Below are positions 6,283 through 57,923 of a stretch of DNA of 64,000 nt, one piece after another. A program made the position numbers and the translations under genes. This DNA comes from Chlamydiia bacterium (lineage in GTDB: Bacteria > Chlamydiota > Chlamydiia > Chlamydiales > 2-12-FULL-49-11). The stretch is taken from contig JAJACI010000001.1 of NCBI GenBank assembly GCA_022601595.1, positions 66,536 to 130,535 of the forward strand, written 5' to 3'. Numbering within the stretch: position 1 is the first letter of the stretch; each line of letters starts with the position of its first letter. Under the pieces are notes generated by a model. It did no database searches. It saw only the letters and a program-made list of their open reading frames with translations, and had not been told where the DNA came from.

Positions 6283-6449
6283 TTTAGGAGACTCTGATAA
6301 ACTACACCTTTTAGAATCTTTTCAGATTTTTTGAAATAAATCCGATTTTGGAGTAAGCTGCATCCCCGTAGGGATGGGGCGAAACGAAAAATAGGATGTA
6401 TCAAAAATCTGGAAGATTATAAAACTGTCCGTTTTTCAGAGTCTTCTTA
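6283..6449 (+). mobile_element. MITE-like palindromic element, subfamily A, copy A1
   Basis: Termini TTTAGGAGACTCTGATAAAC ... GTTTTTCAGAGTCTTCTTA and central hairpin CATCCC-CGTA-GGGATG. About 90% identical by eye to 10580-10746. Its right end supplies the stop of 6447..6755. Confidence 0.9.
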
Positions 6450-10579: not shown

Positions 10580-10746
10580 TTAAGGAGACTCTGATAAACT
10601 ACACTTTTTAGAATCTTTTCAGATTTTTTGAAATAAATTCTATTTTGGAGAAAGCGGCATCCCTGTAGGGATGGGGCGCCACGAAAAATAGGATTTATAA
10701 GAAATCTGGGAGATTATAAAACTGTCCGTTTTTCAGAGTCTCCTAA
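10580..10746 (+). mobile_element. MITE-like palindromic element, subfamily A, copy A2
   Basis: TTAAGGAGACTCTGATAAACTACAC ... GTTTTTCAGAGTCTCCTAA with central CATCCC-TGTA-GGGATG. Its right end supplies the TAG stop of 10743..12926. Confidence 0.9.
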
Positions 10747-19008: not shown

Positions 19009-19431
19009 ATGGTTATGCAGTTTATTCATTTAGAAGATCGATATGTAAACTATGAAAATAAAGATGAATTAGAAGTTTACATTCGCCAAGGCTTATCTCT
19101 TGAAATAGATATAAATCAGGTGCGCAAGATTGTGACAAGTTTACAACACATCAAGTTTTCCAGAGCGAGGTTTTCCTCTATAATAAAGAGAAGGCGCCAG
19201 AGTATTAGAGTTCGACAAAGCGTCACTTGTCTAGGCATAAAAAAATCAGAAAGAAATCTGATGAGAAATTTAGATGATAGAATTCATTGTATAGAGACTT
19301 TGATAAAGTCGCTGAATAAAGCAATAGATAAATTACGATGTAGATCCTTAAGGCATCGAACGAGACTAGAGAAAAAAAAGGGAAGCAAGCTAATGATAAC
19401 AAAAGTTTTTGTCACCTTTAGGAACCTCTGA
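19009..19431 (+). CDS. Hypothetical protein, C-module of the local paralogue family (split from 18555..19007, or frameshifted)
   Basis: The ATG at 19009 is 1 nt after the upstream TAA. QFIHLEDRYVNYENKDELEVYI...ITKVFVTFRNL parallels FVHLDNKNALKQEV...VAKVFVQYREKHL in 20210..20995. The stop TGA lies inside the element B1 terminus. Weak SD. Confidence 0.45.
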   Translation: MVMQFIHLEDRYVNYENKDELEVYIRQGLSLEIDINQVRKIVTSLQHIKFSRARFSSIIKRRRQSIRVRQSVTCLGIKKSERNLMRNLDDRIHCIETLIKSLNKAIDKLRCRSLRHRTRLEKKKGSKLMITKVFVTFRNL

Positions 19432-19584
19432 AAAACTCATGCTGAATAATTAGTCCAGATTTCTTATAAATGAGATTTTTCGCGGCGGTCCAGCCCTACA
19501 GGGCTGAGCCTTACTCCAAAAACCAATTTATTCGAGCAATCTGAAAAAATTATTGAAACCAGCAGTTATTCAGAGTCTCCTTTA
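19418..19584 (+). mobile_element. MITE-like palindromic element, subfamily B, copy B1
   Basis: TTAGGAACCTCTGAAAAACTCATGCTGAATAATTAGTCCAG ... ACCAGCAGTTATTCAGAGTCTCCTTTA with central CAGCCC-TACA-GGGCTG. It is the reverse complement of 41582-41747. Confidence 0.9.
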
Positions 19585-31126: not shown

Positions 31127-31598
31127 TATAGTTTTGATAGGGTTTCAGGGAGTGGGCAAGACATTTTTTGGAAAGAGGCTTGCCAAACATTTAAGGTGGG
31201 ATTTTATAGATACAGACAAGCTTTTGTGTGCAGAATTTGGCGGGGGGATGACCAAGAAGGAGATCTTTGTTAGCATAGGAGAGCGGGAGTTTAGAAAGAG
31301 AGAAAAGGCTATTTTAAAAAGCCTTATTGGTAATGAGCGTTGCGTAATAGCGGCAGGCGGAGGTGTTGTCGAGGTGAAGGGCGTACGTTCTATCTTATGG
31401 CAGCTTGGGAAAGTGATATACCTAAAGAAAGATTTAGCTTGCTTAGAAGAAGCTCATGAAGGGGGAGAGAGAATGTATCTTAGAGGGCAGAGTGTCGAAG
31501 AGGTGTATCAACGAAGGTCTGCTCTTTATCAAGAAATATGTACGGAGACAGTGGAGGCAGAGTGGGATCAAATTCTTTTGGCAGACAGTTTAAAGTAA
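31119..31598 (+). CDS. aroK: Shikimate kinase
   Basis: IVLIGFQGVGKTFFGKRLA Walker A followed by FIDTD. Confidence 0.9.
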   Translation: MSNIVLIGFQGVGKTFFGKRLAKHLRWDFIDTDKLLCAEFGGGMTKKEIFVSIGEREFRKREKAILKSLIGNERCVIAAGGGVVEVKGVRSILWQLGKVIYLKKDLACLEEAHEGGERMYLRGQSVEEVYQRRSALYQEICTETVEAEWDQILLADSLK

Positions 31599-32566
31599 CC
31601 AGTTTTGGGGAGTCTCATGGGAAAGGGATAGGATGCGTAATAGATGGATGCCCTGCAGGTGTTTATCTTGATGAGCAGATGTTTGCCTCTGCGATGAAAA
31701 GGCGAAGGCCTGGTTTTTCTCCCTTCACCTCACCGAGAAAAGAGGAAGATAGAGTAGAGATTTTATCTGGAGTATTTGAAAATACATCCACAGGGGCACC
31801 TATTACCTTATGGATAGAGAATAAAGATCAGAAAAGCACCTCCTATGAAGAAGTGAAGGATGTGATACGGCCCGGACATGCAAACTTTAGCTACTTAAAA
31901 AAGTATGGTATTTTCGATTATAGAGGGGGAGGAAGAGCGTCTGCCCGAGAGACAGCAACGCGTGTCGCAGCAGGGGTGGTGGCTAAACAATTACTTGGTG
32001 CTATTGTCATTCAAGCAAAAGTTATCCAAGTGGGGGGATATAAAGAGAACTTCAAAAAAGTACTTGAACAAGTGATAGAAGAGGGGGATTCGGTAGGCGG
32101 TATTATAGAATGTAATATTAAAAATGTCCCTCCCGGGCTTGGCGATCCTATCTATGAAAAGGTGGAGGCAAACCTTGCTAAAGCGATGCTTTCTATCAAC
32201 GCATGCCGAGGTGTAGAGTTTGGAGATGGCTTTGATTCAGCAGCTATGAAAGGCTCTTTGCACAATGACCAAATGGAAAATGGAAAATTTTTAACCAACC
32301 ACCACGGCGGAATCCTTGCAGGGATCACGACAGGAGAAGAGATAACCTTTAGAGCAGCCTTTAAACCCACCTCAAGCATCAAAAAAGAGATGAAAACGCT
32401 GCTTACCTGCGGAGCAAATACCACTTTAGCCCCTAAAAAAAACACAAGACATGATCCATGTGTCGCACTACGCGCCCCTGCGATTGTGGAAGCAATGGCC
32501 GCCCTTGTTTTCGCAGATTTTATTTTACTTAGCAATTGTGATAAATTGGAAAAAACTTTAACATAG
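31538..32566 (+). CDS. aroC: Chorismate synthase
   Basis: FGESHG, RRPG, GGGRASARETA and RHDPCV motifs. The real start may be the GTG at 31562. Confidence 0.95.
   Translation: MYGDSGGRVGSNSFGRQFKVTSFGESHGKGIGCVIDGCPAGVYLDEQMFASAMKRRRPGFSPFTSPRKEEDRVEILSGVFENTSTGAPITLWIENKDQKSTSYEEVKDVIRPGHANFSYLKKYGIFDYRGGGRASARETATRVAAGVVAKQLLGAIVIQAKVIQVGGYKENFKKVLEQVIEEGDSVGGIIECNIKNVPPGLGDPIYEKVEANLAKAMLSINACRGVEFGDGFDSAAMKGSLHNDQMENGKFLTNHHGGILAGITTGEEITFRAAFKPTSSIKKEMKTLLTCGANTTLAPKKNTRHDPCVALRAPAIVEAMAALVFADFILLSNCDKLEKTLT
32526..32565 (+). repeat. Direct repeat copy 1 (native 3' end of aroC)
   Basis: TACTTAGCAATTGTGATAAATTGGAAAAAACTTTAACATA. 37 of 40 bp are identical to 33789-33828. Confidence 0.9.
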
Positions 32567-32571
32567 ATTAC

Positions 32572-32731
32572 TATAGTCATTACCGTTTCATATGGCGTCT
32601 TCTTCTGCGAATTTGTGTAGTCTTTTGGTAAATGCATCTTGCTAATATTTATAATATTAGCTCGCTAACCCCCCCAAAACCCCCTCAAAAATTCATTGAA
32701 TAACAAACCATATGAAACGGTAATGACTATA
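32572..32731. mobile_element. MITE-like element, family C (160 bp, perfect 24-bp terminal inverted repeats)
   Basis: TATAGTCATTACCGTTTCATATGG ... CCATATGAAACGGTAATGACTATA with a central hairpin GCTAATATT-TAT-AATATTAGC and C7/C5 runs. Solo termini occur at 37485, 57943 and 63084. Confidence 0.85.
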
Positions 32732-32757
32732 TTAAATATTTTAGGTTAATCTTATGA

Positions 32758-33025
32758 AGTTCTCTTTATGATCCGCCGCCATATACATGGGATGATCTAG
32801 GCGATGACGCAACAAAGTGCCCTGGAGAAGGATTTAAATGGGGGGGGTAGTGGGGCTCCAGAAACTGGAAATGGTAATTGGGTGAAGGGTAGAAGAAAAG
32901 AATTTGACCTTCTTCATCCTGATTTTGATAATCCCCAGCATGACCCGCATTGGGACTATGAGAGCTCAGAATTTCCTGCAGGAGTTAGAATATATCCAGA
33001 TGGATGGGAGCATAAGGTACCATGA
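32758..33025 (+). pseudogene. Start-less, frameshifted fragment resembling the C-terminal toxin domain of a polymorphic toxin
   Basis: Two frames join across the G8 tract (32840-32847) to read SSLYDPPPYTWDDLGDDATKCPGEGFKWGG|SGAPETGNGNWVKGRRKEFDLLHPDFDNPQHDPHWDYESSEFPAGVRIYPDGWEHKVP. There is no start codon in the upstream frame. The tracked ORF 32804..33025 is the downstream part. Confidence 0.5.
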
Positions 33026-33483
33026 TACGAGAATTAGTTAAGTATAAATTAGACAAAGAAAAAATCCTGGAATATTTTCGTTGGAATTTAAAAGATTTAA
33101 ATATTTTGTCCAAAGAGGTTGTTGAAAATACTCCTTTTGACAAAGGAGAGTTTTACACGTTAATGCCAAAAGGCTTGTCGGAGGAGCAGGTGCATAGTTT
33201 TCGAGGGGGATGTGTAAAAAGTCACGGTATTCAGGAAGGAGTGTGTGATTTTATTTACAAAAAACAGAAATCAAATTCTGCTTTATTTTGTATATTTGAC
33301 GCTTTGTATGAAGAGTATGATTCAGATTTTGGTATAGGAGATGATCTTTTTTCAAAAATATCAGTGCATAATAATTGCAAGGAAATATATTTAGCTGTAC
33401 TAGATGGTGGGTTTTATGTGAGTTTATTACAAAAATGCTTTCAAATGACGGACTGTATTTGGCATTCACAAAGGAGACCTTGA
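33022..33483 (+). CDS. Hypothetical protein (153 aa), candidate immunity protein of the preceding toxin-like fragment
   Basis: ATGA start/stop overlap with the toxin-like ORF. The last four codons plus the stop (QRRP-TGA) are encoded by the terminus of element A6. No family recognised. Confidence 0.5.
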   Translation: MIRELVKYKLDKEKILEYFRWNLKDLNILSKEVVENTPFDKGEFYTLMPKGLSEEQVHSFRGGCVKSHGIQEGVCDFIYKKQKSNSALFCIFDALYEEYDSDFGIGDDLFSKISVHNNCKEIYLAVLDGGFYVSLLQKCFQMTDCIWHSQRRP

Positions 33484-33635
33484 TAAACGACACTTTTTAG
33501 AATTTCTTCAGATTTTTTGAAAGGTATTCTATTTTGGAGTAAGCGGCATCCCTGTCGGGATGGGGCGAAACGAAAAATAGAATGGATAAGAAATCTGGGA
33601 GATTATAAAACTGTCCTTTTATCAAGGTCTCCTTA
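33469..33635 (+). mobile_element. MITE-like palindromic element, subfamily A, copy A6
   Basis: CAAAGGAGACCTTGATAAACGACAC ... CTTTTATCAAGGTCTCCTTAG. Both termini carry the same CT-to-CC / AG-to-GG change, which preserves complementarity. The centre is CATCCC-TGTC-GGGATG. Confidence 0.9.
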
Positions 33636-33788
33636 GATGGTGATGAGTGATATCCCGTTTGAGAGAAATAAGGATAAGAGTATATCTACGCAGCAATTAG
33701 AGGATATAGCGAAAAAAGCACAGCTTGTTGTGCTTAGGGCCTATGACCAAGAGGGGTATGTTTTTTGGCAAAGAAATAGTGCGTTGAG

Positions 33789-33828
33789 TACTTAGTAATT
33801 GTGATAAATTGGAAAAAACTTTAGTATA
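33789..33828 (+). repeat. Direct repeat copy 2 (duplicated aroC 3' end) immediately upstream of cydA
   Basis: TACTTAGTAATTGTGATAAATTGGAAAAAACTTTAGTATA. It would encode LLSNCDKLEKTLV-stop, matching the aroC C-terminus LLSNCDKLEKTLT-stop. Confidence 0.9.
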
Positions 33829-33858
33829 AAATAATATTATACAATAAGGGCTTATCAT

Positions 33859-35226
33859 ATGGATGTAACCATGCTTTCTCGTATTCAATTTGCATTGAAT
33901 ATTTCTTTTCACTATTTGTTCCCTCCAATGTCAATAGGCCTTGCTTGGGTGATTATAATCATGGAAGGGATCTACCTTAAAACAAAAAACAAAGAGTATT
34001 ATAAAATCACAAGGTTCTTAGTGAATATTTTTGGTCTGTTTTTTGCCATGGGAGTGGCAACAGGTTTTGTTCAGCTTTTTGCTTTTGGAAATAATTGGTC
34101 GCAGTTTTCTAAGTTTGTGGGCAATGTCTTTGGATCTTTGCTTGCGGCAGAGGGAGTTTTTGCCTTTTTCATGGAGGCAGGATTTTTAGGGATAATGATT
34201 TTTGGGTGGACAAAAGTAAAGCCTGTTACTCATTATATTTCAACTATCTTGGTGGGTCTTGGAGCTACCTTTTCAGCAACTTGGATTGTGATGGCAAATT
34301 CATGGATGCAAACCCCTGCTGGATATAAAATTATTGGAGAGGGGATTCATAGAAGAGCTGTTATCACAGATTTGTGGGCGGTATATTTCAACCCTTCTTT
34401 TTTAACCAGGCTCGGCCATGTTCTTTTAGGTTGTTTTTTGATGGGGATATTTTTAGTGATTAGTATTTCTGCCTATTATGTATTAAAGAAAAAGCATGAG
34501 TATTTTGGTAAAAAGATGTTAAAGGGAGCTCTTATTACGGCCTTTGTTGTGTTGATACTACAGTTATGGTCGGCAGATAGTAGTGCTCGCGTAGTTGCAA
34601 AGCATCAGCCGGTGAAATTTGCTGCGATGGAAGCGGTTTTTGAGACAAAGCCAAATACACCAATATCTATTATCGGCATTGTTGATATGAAAGATGAAAA
34701 GGTTTACGGCCTTTCTGTGCCATCGCTTCTTAGTTTGTTAACTTTCCACAACCTTCACGAAGCGGTTCCTGGATTAAATGAATTTCCAAAAGAGGACTGG
34801 CCTCATGTTCCGACGGTATTTTATAGTTATCATATGATGATCTATTGTTGGGGAGGGATGTTATTTATTGCAATTTTAGGGCTTATTTTTAGAAAAAGTC
34901 TTGATAGGAGAAAGTGGTTTTTATGGGGAGCAATGTTATCTATTGCCTTTCCTTATATTGCAAACCTTGCTGGTTGGTTTACTGCCGAGGTGGGAAGGCA
35001 GCCATGGATTGTTCATGGGGTGATGCGAACTGCTCAGGGAGTCTCGCGAGTGATACACAGATCTGATGTGATTGCATCACTTGTTATGTTCACCGTTATG
35101 TATACGATGATGGGCGTACTATTTGTCTACCTGTTAAATAAAAAGATACAAAAAGGGCCTGTCTTTGATGATGATGAGTCAAGCTCAGAGTATAGAGATC
35201 CATTTTTAGAATTAAACAAAAAATAA
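33859..35226 (+). CDS. cydA: Cytochrome bd ubiquinol oxidase subunit I
   Basis: LSRIQFALNISFHYLFPPMSIGLA and GWFTAEVGRQPWIVHGVMRT motifs. Confidence 0.95.
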   Translation: MDVTMLSRIQFALNISFHYLFPPMSIGLAWVIIIMEGIYLKTKNKEYYKITRFLVNIFGLFFAMGVATGFVQLFAFGNNWSQFSKFVGNVFGSLLAAEGVFAFFMEAGFLGIMIFGWTKVKPVTHYISTILVGLGATFSATWIVMANSWMQTPAGYKIIGEGIHRRAVITDLWAVYFNPSFLTRLGHVLLGCFLMGIFLVISISAYYVLKKKHEYFGKKMLKGALITAFVVLILQLWSADSSARVVAKHQPVKFAAMEAVFETKPNTPISIIGIVDMKDEKVYGLSVPSLLSLLTFHNLHEAVPGLNEFPKEDWPHVPTVFYSYHMMIYCWGGMLFIAILGLIFRKSLDRRKWFLWGAMLSIAFPYIANLAGWFTAEVGRQPWIVHGVMRTAQGVSRVIHRSDVIASLVMFTVMYTMMGVLFVYLLNKKIQKGPVFDDDESSSEYRDPFLELNKK

Positions 35227-35236
35227 GGGCGAAATT

Positions 35237-44437: not shown

Positions 44438-45769
44438 ATGAATAAAGGAATAATCTCTGAAAAAGAGCTACTTAAGGTGAAAAAATGTTTATCCAAAGAC
44501 CTCTCTTTTAAATTGGCTTGTAATGCGGTAACAAGAGGAGATTTGCAGGATGTTGCCATGAATTGGGATCGTTTTTCTTTGATAGATCATACCTTTTCTC
44601 ATGTAGTAACACCTGAGCTTTCTGCAACAAGTCAGCATCATAGCGGTCGTTGTTGGATATTTTCTGCCTTAAATTTAATCCGCATTCCTTTTGCAAAAAA
44701 GTATAAACTGGAAGATTTTGAGTTCTCACAAAGTTATTTATTTTTCTTTGACAAGCTTGAAAGGACCAATTATTTCTTAGAAAATATATTAAGCACCTCA
44801 GACATGCCTGTAGATGGACGTCTTGTTTCTCATTTACTTAAAGATCCTGTTCAAGATGGCGGACAGTGGGATATGTTTGTTTCTCTTATCCAAAAATATG
44901 GTATTGTGCCAAAATCTATTTTCCCCGATAGCAAGGCCTCTTTAAATTCTCGATCGATCAACTATATTCTCAGCTATAAGTTAAGAGAGTGGGCAAAAAC
45001 CCTACGTGATTTAAAAGAAAAAAAAGCCTCTGATAAAACGCTTTCTGAAAAAAAAGATTTAATGATGAATGAAGCATTCAGGATAATCTCCATCCATATT
45101 GGGCATCCTCCTGAAAAATTTGATTGGGAGTATGTGGATAAAGATAAAAAATTTCACGCCTGCAGGAACCTTACACCAAAGACATTTTTCAAAAAGCATG
45201 TGAATTTCCCGCTTGATGAAATGGTTAGCCTTGTAAATAGCCCTAGAAAATCTACTCCTTATGGAAAGTCTTATACAGTGAAGTATTTGGGAAATGTAAT
45301 AGAGGGGCAAATAGTTCGTTATTTAAATGTAGAAACACATGTGATGAAAAAAGCTGCTATTGCGGCTATTAAAGATAACTCCCCTGTTTGGATAGGGTGT
45401 GATGTTGGTAAGTTTTTTCATAGAGGCCTCGGTGTAATGGATGCAGAACTGTACGAATACAAGCATTTATATGATACAGAATTTGATTTGGATAAAGGAG
45501 GAAGGCTTGATTATGGGGAGGCGCAGATAGCTCATGCAATGCTTTTTACGGGGGTGAATCTTGTAAATGGCAAGCCTACAAAGTGGCGCGTTGAAAATAG
45601 TTGGGGTGAAAAAAATGGTGACAAAGGATATTATATTATGACCGACAAATGGTTTGATGAATTCATGTTTTTGATCACTGTTCATAAAAAGTACCTTACC
45701 AAGAAGCTTCAGGATGAATATAAGGCTAAACCTCAGGTTGTTCCACCGTGGGATCCTTTGGGAGATTAG
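44438..45769 (+). CDS. pepC: Aminopeptidase C / bleomycin hydrolase family cysteine peptidase (C1B), copy 1
   Basis: The QHHSGRCWIFSALN catalytic Cys motif, HAMLFTGV (His) and ENSWG. Confidence 0.85.
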   Translation: MNKGIISEKELLKVKKCLSKDLSFKLACNAVTRGDLQDVAMNWDRFSLIDHTFSHVVTPELSATSQHHSGRCWIFSALNLIRIPFAKKYKLEDFEFSQSYLFFFDKLERTNYFLENILSTSDMPVDGRLVSHLLKDPVQDGGQWDMFVSLIQKYGIVPKSIFPDSKASLNSRSINYILSYKLREWAKTLRDLKEKKASDKTLSEKKDLMMNEAFRIISIHIGHPPEKFDWEYVDKDKKFHACRNLTPKTFFKKHVNFPLDEMVSLVNSPRKSTPYGKSYTVKYLGNVIEGQIVRYLNVETHVMKKAAIAAIKDNSPVWIGCDVGKFFHRGLGVMDAELYEYKHLYDTEFDLDKGGRLDYGEAQIAHAMLFTGVNLVNGKPTKWRVENSWGEKNGDKGYYIMTDKWFDEFMFLITVHKKYLTKKLQDEYKAKPQVVPPWDPLGD

Positions 45770-45854
45770 GTGTGTTTTAAGAAGAAAAAACTTTATCGTT
45801 AACGAAAAAAATAGTAAGGTAAAGGATGGTTATTTAATACAAAAGGATAGATAT

Positions 45855-47195
45855 ATGAGCAAAGGGAAAATTTCTGAGAAAGAGTTGGTTAAGATGAAAA
45901 ACAGTTTGGTAAAGGATCCTTCCTTTCGTTTAGCGCGTAATGCGGTAACAAGAGGAGATTTGCAAGATGTTGCTATGAATTGGGATCGTTTTGCTTTGCT
46001 TGATCATACCTTTTCAGAGATGGTATCACCAGAGCTTGCTGCAACCAGTCAGCATCAAAGTGGACGTTGTTGGCTTTTTGCTGCGATGAATTTAATGCGT
46101 ATCCCTTTTGCACGTAAGTACAAGTTAGAAAAGTTTGAGTTCTCACAAAGTTATTTATTTTTCTTTGACAAGTTGGAGAAAGCCAATTACTTTTTGGAGA
46201 ATATATTAAAAACAACGGATGAAGCATTTGATGGTCGTCTAGTATCTCATCTGCTCACCGATCCCCTTTCAGATGGCGGACAGTGGGATATGCTTGTCAA
46301 TATAATCAATAAATATGGTGTAGTGCCAAAATCCATTTTCCCAGATAGTAAAGCATCTTTAAACTCTCGTTCCATCAACTACATCTTAACTTTAAAATTA
46401 AGAGAATGGGCAAAGACTCTACGTGATTTAAAGGAGAAAAAAGCCTCTGATAAAAAGCTTTCGGAAACCAAAGATCTGATGATGAACGAGGCGTATAGAA
46501 TTATGGTCACCCATTTTGGGCAGCCTCCTGAAAAGTTTGATTGGGAATATGTGGATAAAAATAAAAAATTCCATGCACATAGAAATTTAACACCAAAGAC
46601 ATTTTTCAAAAAGCATGTGAATTTCCCGCTTGATGAGATGGTCTGCCTGGTCGATAGCCCAAGGAAATCCACCCCTTATAACAAAGCTTATACCGTGAAG
46701 TATCTTGGTAATGTTGTTGAGGGACAGGCTGTTCGTTATTTAAATGTAAAAATTGATGTGATGAAAAAGGCTGCTATTGCATCTATTAAAGATAACACCC
46801 CTGTGTGGTTTGGTTGTGATGTGGGCAAGTTTTTCCATAGAGATATTGGGGTGATGGATACAGAATTTTATGAATATGAGGATTTATATAACACCCGTTT
46901 TGAGCTGGATAAAGCTGGAAGGATGAACTTTGGTGAAAGTCAGATGACTCATGCGATGCTTTTTACTGGGGTGAACCTTGTAAACGGAAAGCCTACAAGG
47001 TGGCGTGTGGAAAATAGCTGGGGGAAAAAGAGCGGTGATAAGGGATATTTTATCATGACAGACAAATGGTTTGATGAGTTTATGTTTGAAATCGCTATCC
47101 ATAAAAAGTACCTTACTAAAAAGATTTGTGATGAATATAAAACAAAACCACAAGCGCTAGAACCTTGGGATCCTTTAGGCGCATTAGCTTATTGA
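45855..47195 (+). CDS. pepC: Aminopeptidase C / bleomycin hydrolase family cysteine peptidase (C1B), copy 2
   Basis: Colinear paralogue of copy 1 (QHQSGRCWLFAAMN, HAMLFTGV, ENSWG). Homology begins at MSKGKISEKEL (45855), so the tracked upstream extension from 45714 is rejected. Confidence 0.85.
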   Translation: MSKGKISEKELVKMKNSLVKDPSFRLARNAVTRGDLQDVAMNWDRFALLDHTFSEMVSPELAATSQHQSGRCWLFAAMNLMRIPFARKYKLEKFEFSQSYLFFFDKLEKANYFLENILKTTDEAFDGRLVSHLLTDPLSDGGQWDMLVNIINKYGVVPKSIFPDSKASLNSRSINYILTLKLREWAKTLRDLKEKKASDKKLSETKDLMMNEAYRIMVTHFGQPPEKFDWEYVDKNKKFHAHRNLTPKTFFKKHVNFPLDEMVCLVDSPRKSTPYNKAYTVKYLGNVVEGQAVRYLNVKIDVMKKAAIASIKDNTPVWFGCDVGKFFHRDIGVMDTEFYEYEDLYNTRFELDKAGRMNFGESQMTHAMLFTGVNLVNGKPTRWRVENSWGKKSGDKGYFIMTDKWFDEFMFEIAIHKKYLTKKICDEYKTKPQALEPWDPLGALAY

Positions 47196-52393: not shown

Positions 52394-53431
52394 ATGAATA
52401 AAGTTGATCAATTAGTAGGACGCTCTGTAGGTATTAATATTGAAGAAAAGAAGCCTGCTAAAAAACATAGCACTACACTCATGCATTTAATCGGGGAAAT
52501 TCGGAATAAAGAGAATTCTACCGCAAGAAAGGTTGGTGAGAGTGTCGTTTTAGTTCTTTATTTTTTGAGCGGTCTTTTTTTAGCAGAAGCCCTTGGCTGT
52601 CTAGGAAATTGGATGTGGAGTGAGATCAAAAGAGGTCTCTCAAACCATAAAAGAACAGCTGAATTAAAAAATATCCTTATAAATGATGTCAAAACTAAAG
52701 CTACAAAAGCAATCCGCCCTTTAGCTTACGATATTCTTAACAAGCTTATGAGCAGACCTAAAGTGGTAGAGACCATTGATTATGTTACATCCCTTGGTGT
52801 GGCCACAGGAACAGGTGCCCTGAAAGACGTGCTCAATGGAAGGGTGTTTTGTGACGCTAAAAAGGTAGCTATTGATTCGGTTATGGGCAACTTAGGAGAG
52901 ACTGGAAATACAGTTTTAAAAGACTTCAACACCGTGTTTGGAATAGCAGAGAAACCCGCGGCTACAACGCCTCCGGCTGCAGATAAAGCGAAGCCTGAAG
53001 CAAAGAATCCGTCTGTTGAAAAAGTAAAAAAAATCATTTTTGATGAGCTTGAGACACTTGTTATGCAACCATTTTATACGATACTTGGTAACGCTTCTGA
53101 TGCGGTTAAGGCGGCTTTTTTGGGAACATCGGAAAAAGAGGAGATCGCTCCTATAAAACCTACCGCTACTGCTAAAGTTAAGACTCCAGAGGAAGACAAC
53201 ACTGCTGCATTAGAGTCTCAAGGTGCGCAAATGGTAAGTTGGTTGAAAGCGCTTGTTAAAGAAACACCTGGAAGTGATGCTCCAAAACAAGGTCCTGTTG
53301 TTACTAAAGTAGTACCGACACCCACAACTGGAGCAATACCTGAAATAAATGCAATAAAGGACAAATTTCTTGCAAATTTAAAGAAACAGGCTCCATGGCA
53401 TGTGCGATATTTTTTAGGGCAACTCTATTAA
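52394..53431 (+). CDS. Hypothetical protein (345 aa) with one hydrophobic hairpin-like segment and a Pro/Ala/Lys-rich region
   Basis: GGAGAGG SD, with the start 2 nt after the upstream stop. VVLVLYFLSGLFLAEALGCLGNWMW. The stop TAA is the first TAA of element A9. Confidence 0.65.
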   Translation: MNKVDQLVGRSVGINIEEKKPAKKHSTTLMHLIGEIRNKENSTARKVGESVVLVLYFLSGLFLAEALGCLGNWMWSEIKRGLSNHKRTAELKNILINDVKTKATKAIRPLAYDILNKLMSRPKVVETIDYVTSLGVATGTGALKDVLNGRVFCDAKKVAIDSVMGNLGETGNTVLKDFNTVFGIAEKPAATTPPAADKAKPEAKNPSVEKVKKIIFDELETLVMQPFYTILGNASDAVKAAFLGTSEKEEIAPIKPTATAKVKTPEEDNTAALESQGAQMVSWLKALVKETPGSDAPKQGPVVTKVVPTPTTGAIPEINAIKDKFLANLKKQAPWHVRYFLGQLY

Positions 53432-53595
53432 GGAGACTCTGATAAACGGACAGTTTTATAATCTCCCAGATTTCTTATCAATCCTATTTTTCGTGGCGCC
53501 CCATCCCTACAGGGATGCCGCTTACTCCAAAATAAAATTCATTTCAAAAAATCTGAAAAGATTCTAAAAGGTGTAGTTTATCAGAGTCTCCTTAA
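53428..53595 (-). mobile_element. MITE-like palindromic element, subfamily A, copy A9
   Basis: TTAAGGAGACTCTGATAAACGGACAG ... GTGTAGTTTATCAGAGTCTCCTTAA with centre CATCCC-TACA-GGGATG. Confidence 0.9.
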
Positions 53596-57707: not shown

Positions 57708-57755
57708 ATCCAGAGTATTGCATTTCAACCTTGAACTGGGGTCCCCAAAATTCCC

Positions 57756-57923
57756 TTAAGGAGACTCTGAAAAACGGACAGTTTTATAATTTTCCAGATT
57801 TCTTATAAATCCTATTTTTCATGGCGCCCCATCCCGAGGGGGATGCAGCTTACTCCAAAATCGGATTTATTTCAAAAAATCTGAAGAAATTCTAAAAAGT
57901 GTAGTTTATCAGAGTCTCCTTAA
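57756..57923 (-). mobile_element. MITE-like palindromic element, subfamily A, copy A10
   Basis: TTAAGGAGACTCTGAAAAACGGACAG ... GTGTAGTTTATCAGAGTCTCCTTAA with centre CATCCC-GAGGG-GGATG. It appears to be inserted into a family-C element. Confidence 0.9.

Follow-up and report, generated by a model that had tools for sequence, protein, structure and literature searches.

The gene for chorismate synthase (aroC) and those for cytochrome bd oxidase (cydA and cydB) are intact in the 64-kb stretch of DNA analysed here (the window), and they lie in the order aroA-aroK-aroC-cydA-cydB, which is common to the window and its relatives. Between aroC and cydA we observed a 1.26-kb segment that contains a toxin pseudogene, an interrupted gene downstream of it and two MITEs, and that is flanked by direct repeats of the aroC 3' end (Table 1). 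The GC content of this insert was approximately that of its flanks, and its composition thus gave no signal of foreign origin.

Table 1 Features of the aroC-cydA region, with window coordinates
Feature	Position	Strand	Description and evidence
aroC (chorismate synthase)	31538..32566	+	Intact; Pfam Chorismate_synt, E=4e-118
Left repeat copy	32526..32564	+	Functional aroC 3' end, LLSNCDKLEKTLT followed by stop
Family-C MITE	32568..32735	.	Between aroC stop and toxin start, in junction hairpin; absent in L042
Predicted mini-Rhs toxin gene, start remnant	32754..32765	+	ATG AAG TTC TCT (MKFS); aligns to L042 4250-4281; intact homologs start with MKFS
Deletion junction	32766..32775	+	Signal peptide and YD-repeat core missing (1,089 bp, L042 4282-5370); blastn of window versus L042, junction sequences
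Ntox37-like C-terminal toxin domain (predicted), pseudogene	32776..33025	+	Frameshift in G8 run at 32840-32847; three-frame translations
Predicted immunity gene, N-terminal three quarters (153-aa ORF)	33022..33468	+	Start overlaps toxin stop (ATGA); family alignment
A-type MITE	33469..33636	.	Splits immunity gene between IWHS and LMVMSD; absent in L042
Predicted immunity gene, C-terminal quarter (52-aa ORF)	33637..33795	+	Stop TAG inside right repeat copy; one continuous gene in L042
Right repeat copy	33789..33829	+	Recipient's original aroC 3' end and stop, VLSNCDKLEKTLV followed by stop; ancestral 29-bp spacing to cydA kept; comparison with empty sites
cydA and cydB (cytochrome bd oxidase)	33859..36265	+	Intact, 3' of insert; ORFs, with Pfam Cyt_bd_oxida_I and II on the identical locus L045

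Direct repeat of the aroC 3' end

The last 13 codons of aroC (32526-32564) were repeated upstream of cydA at 33789-33827. Identity between the two sequences was 88% over 49 nt (32526-32574 versus 33789-33837), with a 35-nt core that contained a single mismatch, was found in none of 100 dinucleotide shuffles and occurred only twice in the window. The duplication described by the first-pass annotation is thus real, and the peptide KVFSNLSQLLS, which it had noted in antisense ORFs on both copies, is indeed present in each. Strict identity between the left and right copies extended over 39 nt and did not include the last 2 nt of the original stop codon, the identity block having a sharp left boundary and reaching the end of the gene. 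The aroC reading frame is open through both copies, and the reconstructed ancestral left and right copies matched over at least 35 nt. The right copy is non-coding, with conservation roughly equal to that of the adjoining coding sequence. Its stop codon is separated from the cydA initiation codon (33859) by 29 bp; the corresponding aroC-cydA spacing in relatives without an insert is 27-32 bp.

Toxin gene and predicted immunity gene

Comparison with the contig L042, whose insert is a fuller, 2-kb version of the cassette, identified the genes in the window copy. The toxin-like fragment had been annotated as start-less, but its start codon persists within four remaining codons, which are followed by the 1,089-bp deletion and then by the frameshift. 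The sequence TAATG is present at both ends of the deleted segment in L042. A tblastn search of the window with P0004 yielded two segments in different frames.

The sole Pfam match of the toxin domain was Ntox37, which for the window copy (E=0.12, 13.4 bits) fell short of the cut-off of 27.8 bits. All seven homologous toxin domains examined matched Ntox37 only, with a best E value of 1.2e-5, and the domain lies below the Pfam Ntox37 threshold. The orthologous cassette and the homologs contain RHS/YD repeats (PF05593, PF25023) in the part that has been deleted from the window, and approximately 100 homolog clusters of 400-570 aa possess RHS_repeat or TEN_YD-shell domains. Sequence matches in the PDB were to the end of the shell in TccC3, teneurin and Rhs. 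The Rhs core motif (PxxxxDPxGL-type), which divides the shell from the toxin tip, was found as NNPFYY(M/I)DPDGR in both the L042 toxin and P0004, and DP.G was nearly invariant among 22 homologs. The intact toxin is thus predicted to be a secreted "mini-Rhs" protein of ~450 aa, with a Sec-type signal peptide, a short YD/RHS stretch, a core motif that ends in DPDGR, a pair of hydrophobic helices and an Ntox37-like domain of ~85 aa. It is likewise predicted to act as a toxin.

The 153-aa and 52-aa ORFs are present as annotated, but they are not separate genes; they are the two parts of one predicted immunity gene that is split by the A-type MITE. In the uninterrupted gene of L042, CFQMTDCIWHS is followed directly by LMVMSDIPFEKNK, the boundary between the two being the MITE site in the window. 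Alignment of the immunity family, which comprises 26 clusters, revealed the conserved motifs IWHSL and AYDxEGYxFW. Its members were always located 3' of toxins with this C-terminal domain or in immunity arrays, and at no fewer than eight loci a member of ~200 aa directly followed such a toxin, frequently with a start/stop overlap. For the reconstructed window protein, Pfam detected no family at E<=1; three intact homologs gave only unrelated matches below threshold, none of them to Imm32. A confident model of the immunity protein gave no match in a Foldseek search of the PDB. From its position and sequence, the downstream protein of ~200 aa is predicted to be the cognate immunity partner of the toxin.

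Ntox37 has been listed for chlamydiae together with RHS repeats and T2SS signals (PMC3482391). The genes described here resemble the Rhs/YD toxin systems with Ntox37 (Zhang et al. 2012, PMC3482391) in their RHS/YD repeats, their core ending in DPxGR and their variable C-terminal toxin domain, as well as in the immunity gene directly downstream with its start/stop overlap, in the immunity arrays and in the orphan toxin fragments at paralogous loci. They differ from these systems in that the toxin domain is below the Pfam Ntox37 cut-off, the window copy is a pseudogene, and the immunity protein falls outside Imm32, which is the family reported as the immunity partner of Ntox37, and corresponds to no Pfam family or PDB fold found by Foldseek. 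Whereas typical Rhs proteins are larger than 1,400 aa, the toxin here is of ~450 aa, and its YD region does not have the length needed for a full shell. In environmental chlamydiae, Rhs toxins that are unusually short and bear a signal peptide form a large family, whose partner immunity family is uncharacterised.

MITEs and decay of the window copy

Both MITEs are ~165 nt long, multicopy and non-coding, and have terminal inverted repeats. The family-C element was confirmed as real, with inverted arms of 50 nt (32568-32617 and 32686-32735) and a terminal repeat that is perfect over 24 nt; two more ends were located at other places in the window. The A-type element (33469-33634) also proved to be what it had been taken for: it is a member of a 165-nt family, and the window contains 21 occurrences of the terminal repeat of this family. 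The corresponding uninterrupted site in L042 contains TTAA, and many copies of the family are flanked by TTAA; the flanks of the window copy are mutated. An Rfam scan of this region of the window detected only sub-threshold hairpin look-alikes, at the MITEs. Given that both elements are absent in L042, they are later arrivals that lie outside the original insert, and they are unrelated to the aroC-tail duplication.

Relative to L042, the window copy has thus lost the toxin core by deletion, acquired a frameshift in the G8 run and received two MITEs, the immunity gene being split by one of them. The 1.26-kb segment is therefore best described as the wreck of what is predicted from its sequence to be a two-gene polymorphic-toxin cassette, and not as a decayed integrative element. 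One dead toxin-immunity cassette and two later MITEs together explain four small features of the window: the repeat, the toxin-like fragment and the ORFs of 153 and 52 aa.

Empty and filled sites in relatives

The first-pass annotation had proposed a search for an empty site, and such sites were found in four related Chlamydiia contigs (L001, L002, L003 and L009), in which cydA follows aroC after 27-32 bp without an insert. A phylogenetic tree placed L001 as the sister of the filled clade. In three contigs (L042, L043 and L044) whose flanking-gene proteins are 86-93% identical to those of the window, a 401-aa YD-shell protein with the toxin domain and an immunity gene are located between the same two repeats. 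The L042 insert is flush with both repeats: the toxin gene starts 28 nt past the left copy and overlaps the immunity gene, which ends inside the right copy. In a third lineage, L053, an intact 450-aa toxin gene lies straight after the aroC tail. Because the last 2 nt of the stop codon fall outside the repeat, aroC is lengthened by 2-5 codons in L042 and L053. These comparisons support the conclusion that DNA was inserted between aroC and cydA and that the repeat marks this old insertion.

Cassettes of the same family at other loci

Two-gene cassettes of the same family were present at many different loci. Long flanking duplications were observed at three of the eight independent cassette loci with testable flanks, with lengths of 39, 202 and 57 nt. 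The 202-nt duplication (98% identity) flanks the cassette in L061 and covers the stop codon, the shared terminator and the clpB 3' end; here, as in the window, the right copy supplies in its first bases the stop codon of the immunity gene. The 57-nt duplication (88% identity) flanks the cassette in L062. Its by-eye resemblance to a tRNA 3' half was rejected, since ARAGORN and Rfam found nothing. The cassette ends at these loci had no conserved motif in common. In L056 and L058, a classic scar of the Rhs-displacement type was found inside the toxin genes.

A second aroC-tail duplication

In L004, which belongs to a distant lineage, two diverged copies of the aroC tail (~75% identical) are separated by 126 bp, and the boundary of the duplication coincides with that in the window to within 1 nt. 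The functional left tail of L004 is aberrant, and the remnant right tail is native-looking. An unconstrained alignment of the 126-bp insert with the cassette was not significant. A position-constrained test gave p=0.0005 against shuffles and 0.003 empirically, with the same stretch resembling the end of the A-type MITE about equally well; homology of this insert to the cassette, perhaps as a relic of the same event, is thus only suggested by the alignment. Local nucleotide identity around the junction gave no clear indication that the lineages of the window and L004 had recently exchanged DNA laterally. The shared boundary would not be expected of independent illegitimate events, and it therefore calls for shared ancestry followed by precise losses, for lateral spread or for a site-specific process.

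Origin of the insert

The most plausible history is that a two-gene toxin-immunity cassette was inserted at the aroC-cydA junction independently of a recombinase and then decayed in the lineage of the window, and we consider this probable. Recombinase-independent insertion is favoured because the length of the duplication varies, the cassette ends are not conserved and no integrase is present. The cassette would have entered the junction in the ancestor of a small clade of environmental Chlamydiia, with vertical inheritance thereafter. The insertion could have been anchored by homology in aroC, either through one-sided homologous recombination coupled with illegitimate recombination or through a single crossover of a small circle, or it could have been mediated by illegitimate recombination at both cassette ends. 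It may have survived because it duplicated 39 nt that both neighbours need, with the aroC tail and the native sequence upstream of cydA both being kept; the mechanism of insertion and this role of selection are what we infer from the arrangement. In the window lineage the cassette subsequently died through loss of the toxin core, the frameshift and the two MITE insertions. Neither a donor configuration, with the cassette 3' of aroC and the right copy lacking, nor a circular form of the cassette was found, and both results count against this history, as does the boundary shared with L004. Also counting against it is that chlamydiae are not known for frequent DNA uptake.

Events of the same kind have been invoked in models for the displacement of Rhs tips via circular intermediates (Jackson et al. 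2009, PMC2935791) and for that of T6SS effector-immunity modules by homology-facilitated illegitimate recombination (Kirchberger et al. 2017, PMC5361080). In those models, as here, a toxin-immunity unit leaves a 3' stretch of the upstream gene duplicated on its far side with no need for an integrase (PMC2935791, PMC5361080). The present case differs in that what has been duplicated comes from housekeeping neighbours (the aroC tail, or the terminator with the clpB 3' end) rather than from a resident toxin gene, and in that no old toxin tip was displaced. If confirmed, the bracketing of three independent cassettes by long duplications of the ends of their neighbours would extend the Rhs and T6SS displacement models to insertions anchored in housekeeping genes, and would reveal how toxin cassettes settle in the narrow spaces between genes of compact genomes while leaving essential neighbours intact.

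Neisseria minimal mobile elements are cassettes between conserved genes that are swapped by recombination in the flanking homology. Like them, the insert described here is bordered by two conserved housekeeping genes, brings no genes for its own mobility and is found in some relatives but not in others; unlike it, they are not known for a duplicated end of a flanking gene, and natural transformation is not known to be established in chlamydiae.

Site-specific integration is unlikely, although several observations point towards it. According to this explanation, a non-autonomous 2-kb unit with an attP mimicking the aroC tail would have been integrated by a tyrosine or serine recombinase encoded elsewhere, with the two copies representing attL and attR. 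The direct repeats abut the insert and the site is empty in relatives, as for islands and prophages at tRNA or protein-gene 3' ends, and the identity block runs from its sharp left boundary to the gene end, as it does in islands that target gene 3' ends. The L004 duplication shares this boundary, with an aberrant left tail and a native-looking right tail as expected if the element supplied a surrogate tail, and cassettes of the family occupy many loci. However, no recombinase is encoded by any version of the insert, including the least decayed, and a search for recombinase, integrase, resolvase and transposase domains in 20 other ORFs of the window found none. The first-pass annotation was correct in reading the segment as a decayed orphan module, in that it is a toxin-immunity wreck; its proposal of an integrative cassette with attL and attR made by a lost recombinase was not supported, given that the genes of L042 are flush with the repeats and leave no room in which a recombinase gene could have been located or from which it could have been deleted. 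The suggestion of a lost integrase in the window is thereby removed. The annotation had also proposed a search of the genome for further copies of the repeat; a degenerate 27-mer scan for attP-like copies gave two unrelated chance hits in metagenome contigs and none in viral contigs, these collections being incomplete and containing no L042-type contigs, and the same scans revealed no closer empty site. The three loci with duplications moreover differ in duplication length and sequence and share no motif at the cassette ends, unlike the products of a single fixed-core integrase, and aroC is extended rather than cleanly restored, the repeat lacking a complete stop codon. Islands and prophages at gene 3' ends also differ from this 2-kb, two-gene insert, flush with its repeats, for which no version with an integrase was found.

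A broader proposal, which we regard as doubtful, is that the mini-Rhs toxin-immunity pairs of environmental Chlamydiota are autonomous mobile cassettes of ~2 kb, for which a dedicated trans-acting mechanism would make target duplications of 39-202 nt that rebuild the ends of both neighbours, with the aroC tail serving as a preferred target reused in the window clade and in L004.

It is improbable that the duplication came first, with slippage producing a tandem copy of the aroC tail and the cassette (or, in L004, other DNA) landing later between the copies. The diverged tail copies of L004, only 126 bp apart, are compatible with such a course. Yet the cassette occupies exactly the interval between the copies, and the immunity gene stops in the right copy, so that a later insertion would have had to land on the very point where the copies meet; an equally flush fit is seen in L061 with an unrelated 202-nt target, and a bare tandem duplication was found in none of the relatives with an empty site. 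A long target-site duplication arising from a transposition-like staggered cut is very improbable: the two copies were probably identical when formed, as the agreement of the ancestral reconstructions over at least 35 nt suggests, but the cassette has neither terminal inverted repeats nor a transposase, and the target-site duplications of IS and Tn families known to us in bacteria are far shorter and less variable than 39, 57 and 202 nt.

That the repeat is a regulatory motif, such as a cydAB promoter, instead of an insertion scar is scarcely credible: a weak TTGTnn-N17-TAnnnT was seen by inspection at the same place 5' of cydA in all seven lineages, the right copy of L042 scores 9/12 as a promoter-like site, and the right copy is about as conserved as neighbouring coding sequence, but promoter-like matches were no commoner than in shuffles, only the two copies exist in the window with no related one in the metagenome or viral scans, the right copy is still an in-frame aroC tail, and a promoter could explain retention of the copy but not its duplication. 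We do not claim the right copy as the cydA promoter, since a promoter and terminator scan gave no excess of promoter-like sites over shuffles.

At the left junction of the insert we also observed a palindrome, for which we claim no function given that it is weak in the window and in L053. In L042 the palindrome is very stable (-23.3 kcal/mol, z=-7), and three of the changes between L042 and the window affect both arms.

Insertion between aroC and cydA

The 3' end of aroC is present twice in the window, as a two-copy repeat family of 49 nt and 88% identity found by a repeat search. Its 35-nt core, with a single base mismatch between the copies, occurs only twice in the whole window (0 of 100 shuffles contained a match), so that the duplication upstream of cydA described in the first-pass annotation is real. 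Translated in the aroC frame, the left copy gives LLSNCDKLEKTLT and the right copy VLSNCDKLEKTLV, each followed by a stop codon, and their antisense ORFs were seen to have KVFSNLSQLLS in common, as that annotation had also reported. The stop codon of the right copy is located 29 bp before the cydA ATG. The empty site that had been proposed as a check was found in four relatives (L001, L002, L003 and L009), in which cydA follows aroC after 27–32 bp. Given this matching distance, the right copy and its spacer represent the ancestral state of the aroC end and its junction, which makes the 1.26 kb an insertion. Left-right identity stops 2 nt short of the end of the original stop codon, with the result that AroC is 2–5 residues longer in L042 and L053 and was not cleanly restored. 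At position 23 of the repeat, the two window copies both have G, against A in all other copies compared, a pattern suggestive of gene conversion between the two.

The window sequence is identical to NCBI contig JAHZIP010002522.1, and the annotation of a Chlamydiia MAG lists the 153-aa ORF under SP4CHLAM5_01930. Scanning of a genome collection with AroC yielded relatives at 69–75% identity and no identical genome.

Related cassettes and decay

A homolog of the 153-aa ORF (67% identity) also lies between aroC and cydA on three JGI contigs (L042–L044) from a closer relative, whose flanking genes share 86–93% protein identity with those of the window. The 2-kb gap in these contigs contains a 401-aa ORF with a YD-shell match, which continues past one in-frame TAG into a C-terminal domain of ~85 aa, followed 3' by an immunity gene of ~203 aa that is frameshifted in an A-run. 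The aroC-tail repeat (39 nt with 3 mismatches) is flush on each side of the insert. The TAG is a TGG-to-TAG nonsense change at a codon that encodes Trp in the window. This orthologous cassette is inactivated too, independently of that in the window; the A10-run frameshift could be a homopolymer sequencing error. A third lineage (L053) carries an intact 450-aa toxin immediately 3' of the aroC tail.

Alignment of the window with L042 revealed three lineage-specific lesions and a frameshift. A family-C MITE is inserted immediately after the aroC stop; the toxin gene lacks 1,089 bp between two TAATG motifs, with the remnant ATGAAGTTCTCT; and an A-type MITE interrupts the immunity gene between IWHS and LMVMSD, so that the 153-aa and 52-aa ORFs are two halves of one gene. 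The frameshift is in a G8 run of the toxin domain. It follows that the two MITEs arrived after the insertion and do not belong to the insert. The small inverted-repeat elements proved to be genuine multi-copy MITEs, as first annotated: for the A-type terminal repeat AAGGAGACTCTGATAAAC, 21 occurrences were counted in 64 kb versus 0.04 expected, and TTAA flanks many of the ~165-nt copies, in which the window is dense.

A binned MAG contig (L046, JAJACR010000009.1) matches the window until the final base of the A-type MITE and then diverges into unrelated genes, which encode a methyltransferase and an Rce1-like protein and stand where cydA would be expected. An assembly join at the repeat is the probable cause, but the contig may also reflect a real rearrangement. 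The L042 aroC stop is overlapped by a perfect palindrome with 14-bp arms (GTATCAACCTAAAA-TA-TTTTAGGTTGATAC) just 5' of the toxin start, which with its outer pairs folds at -23.3 kcal/mol (z = -7). Its window counterpart, disrupted by the family-C MITE, differs at three positions on both arms such that pairing would persist, and the L053 structure is weak.

Coordinates of features in the window and in homologous loci
Sequence	Position	Strand	Feature
Window	32526-32574; 33789-33837		Left and right copies of aroC-tail repeat
Window	32561-32567; 32734-32756		Counterpart of L042 palindrome
Window	32754-32765		Toxin gene remnant
Window	32840-32847		G8 run
Window	6283-6447; 10580-10744; 19413-19584; 36417-36588; 41584-41746; 53424-53595; 57752-57923; others		~165-nt MITEs
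Window	42994-43161		21-nt tandem repeat
Window	42270-43379	minus	369-aa ORF
Window	44438-45769; 45714-47195		Peptidase_C1_2 genes
L042	4238-4269		Palindrome
L042	5473-5475		Nonsense change
L042	5862-5871		A10 run
L046	from 6614		Match to window and divergence after A-type MITE
L049	6100-8466		Immunity-gene array
L057	724-3240		Immunity-gene array
L007	2914-5609		Rhs toxin and immunity gene
L061	3700-3901; 5977-6178		Direct duplication
L062	3854-3910; 5953-6009		Direct repeat
L062	3551-3754	minus	rve_3 fragment

Toxin and immunity families

The intact toxin comprises a hydrophobic NH2-terminal signal-like segment, RHS repeats, the motif NNPFYYIDPDGR, two hydrophobic helices and the C-terminal domain, with the signal peptide and helices having been read by inspection. 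Its ~100 homolog clusters (400–570 aa, P0004–P0087) are mostly labelled Chlamydiota where a source is named, and in the PDB the sequence matched shells of TccC3, teneurin and Rhs at their C-terminal end. Ntox37 was the only Pfam match for all seven of the toxin domains tested (best E = 1.2e-5); the window domain scored under the curated threshold (E = 0.12). Ntox37 is listed by Zhang et al. 2012 (PMC3482391) as an all-beta toxin that in chlamydiae accompanies RHS repeats and T2SS signals. These mini-Rhs proteins carry only ~250 aa of YD repeats, and a complete Rhs shell would need more; their conserved length suggests that they may nevertheless be functional.

The immunity family comprises 26 clusters with the invariant motifs W-H and AYD.EG.W, and at other loci its members either follow large Rhs toxins or form tandem arrays. 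It matched no model in a Pfam search and is not Imm32. The AlphaFold model was confident (pLDDT 90, pTM 0.90) and had no match in PDB by Foldseek. Three to four paralogous immunity genes stand behind one toxin at L049 and L057, as is typical of polyimmunity loci. A distant relative (L007, 52% AroC identity) has, directly upstream of aroC, a Rhs toxin of 633 aa that carries the same C-terminal domain and is followed by its immunity gene, which is fused to an orphan toxin fragment; this location may be coincidental or may hint at a preference for aro loci.

A second duplicated aroC tail

Another distant relative (L004, 75% protein identity across AroC, CydA and CydB) has its own duplicated aroC tail, which brackets 126 bp and whose right-copy boundary is that of the window to within 1 nt. 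The remnant right copy looks native (LNNCYKLEKTLS and stop), and the functional left tail is aberrant. Position-specific similarity of the 126 bp to the cassette start gave p = 0.0005 (shuffles) or 0.003 (empirical), with the A-type MITE end being resembled about equally, and traces of the final immunity-gene codons may be present. In a neighbor-joining tree with short deep branches, L001, which has the empty site, branched between L004 and the clade of the window. An ancient insertion might have been followed by precise losses, the expected product of recombination between the repeats; the cassette might have spread laterally; or a specific site might have been used independently, which would favour a site-specific process.

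Mechanism of insertion

The first-pass annotation had interpreted the repeats as attL/attR of a lost recombinase. It was right about the insertion of a decayed orphan toxin module, for which relatives have an empty site; what lies between aroC and cydA belongs, in pseudogenised form, to a kind of system already known. The integrase mechanism is not supported: the repeat ends inside the stop codon, and no integrase, resolvase or transposase domain was detected in 20 other window ORFs. In L042, the toxin starts 28 nt past the left copy, the toxin and immunity genes overlap, and the immunity stop lies within the right copy, a layout that leaves no place for a former recombinase gene. Scans of metagenome and viral contigs for the repeat yielded no relevant match.

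Among eight independent cassette loci with usable flanks, long flanking direct repeats were present at three: aroC-cydA (39 nt), L061 (202 nt, 98% identity) and L062 (57 nt, 88% identity). The L061 duplication surrounds another mini-Rhs and immunity cassette and contains the upstream ORF's stop codon, a shared terminator hairpin and the 3'-terminal ~47 codons of convergent clpB. As at aroC, the immunity gene ends on a stop codon provided by the first bases of the right copy. The duplication leaves a 48-aa clpB fragment ORF. The L062 repeat abuts the 3' end of a convergent gene. This third cassette has a different immunity family (DUF7336), and the region just upstream holds a weak rve_3 transposase fragment. 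A tRNA T-arm, suspected by eye in the 57-nt repeat, was not matched by ARAGORN or Rfam.

The three duplications are unlike in length and sequence and the cassette ends have no common motif, which fits insertion independent of a recombinase. One possible route combines one-sided homologous with illegitimate recombination, or has a small circle integrating through a single crossover; such models have been put forward for the displacement of Rhs tips (PMC2935791) and for effector-immunity modules of the T6SS (PMC5361080). The alternative would be doubly illegitimate joining. On either route, selection would retain only events that duplicate the ends needed by both tightly packed neighbours. The classic form of such a scar, within a toxin gene, is seen at L056 and L058. 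Two subjects merit follow-up: the recurrence of long target duplications at cassettes of this family, and the immunity family, which is uncharacterised.

Other features of the window

The 21-nt tandem repeat (about 6–8 copies) is within the 369-aa ORF, which had no match in Pfam. Two neighbouring genes for Peptidase_C1_2 (bleomycin-hydrolase-like) proteins are paralogs, with 79% identity over a 300-nt stretch.
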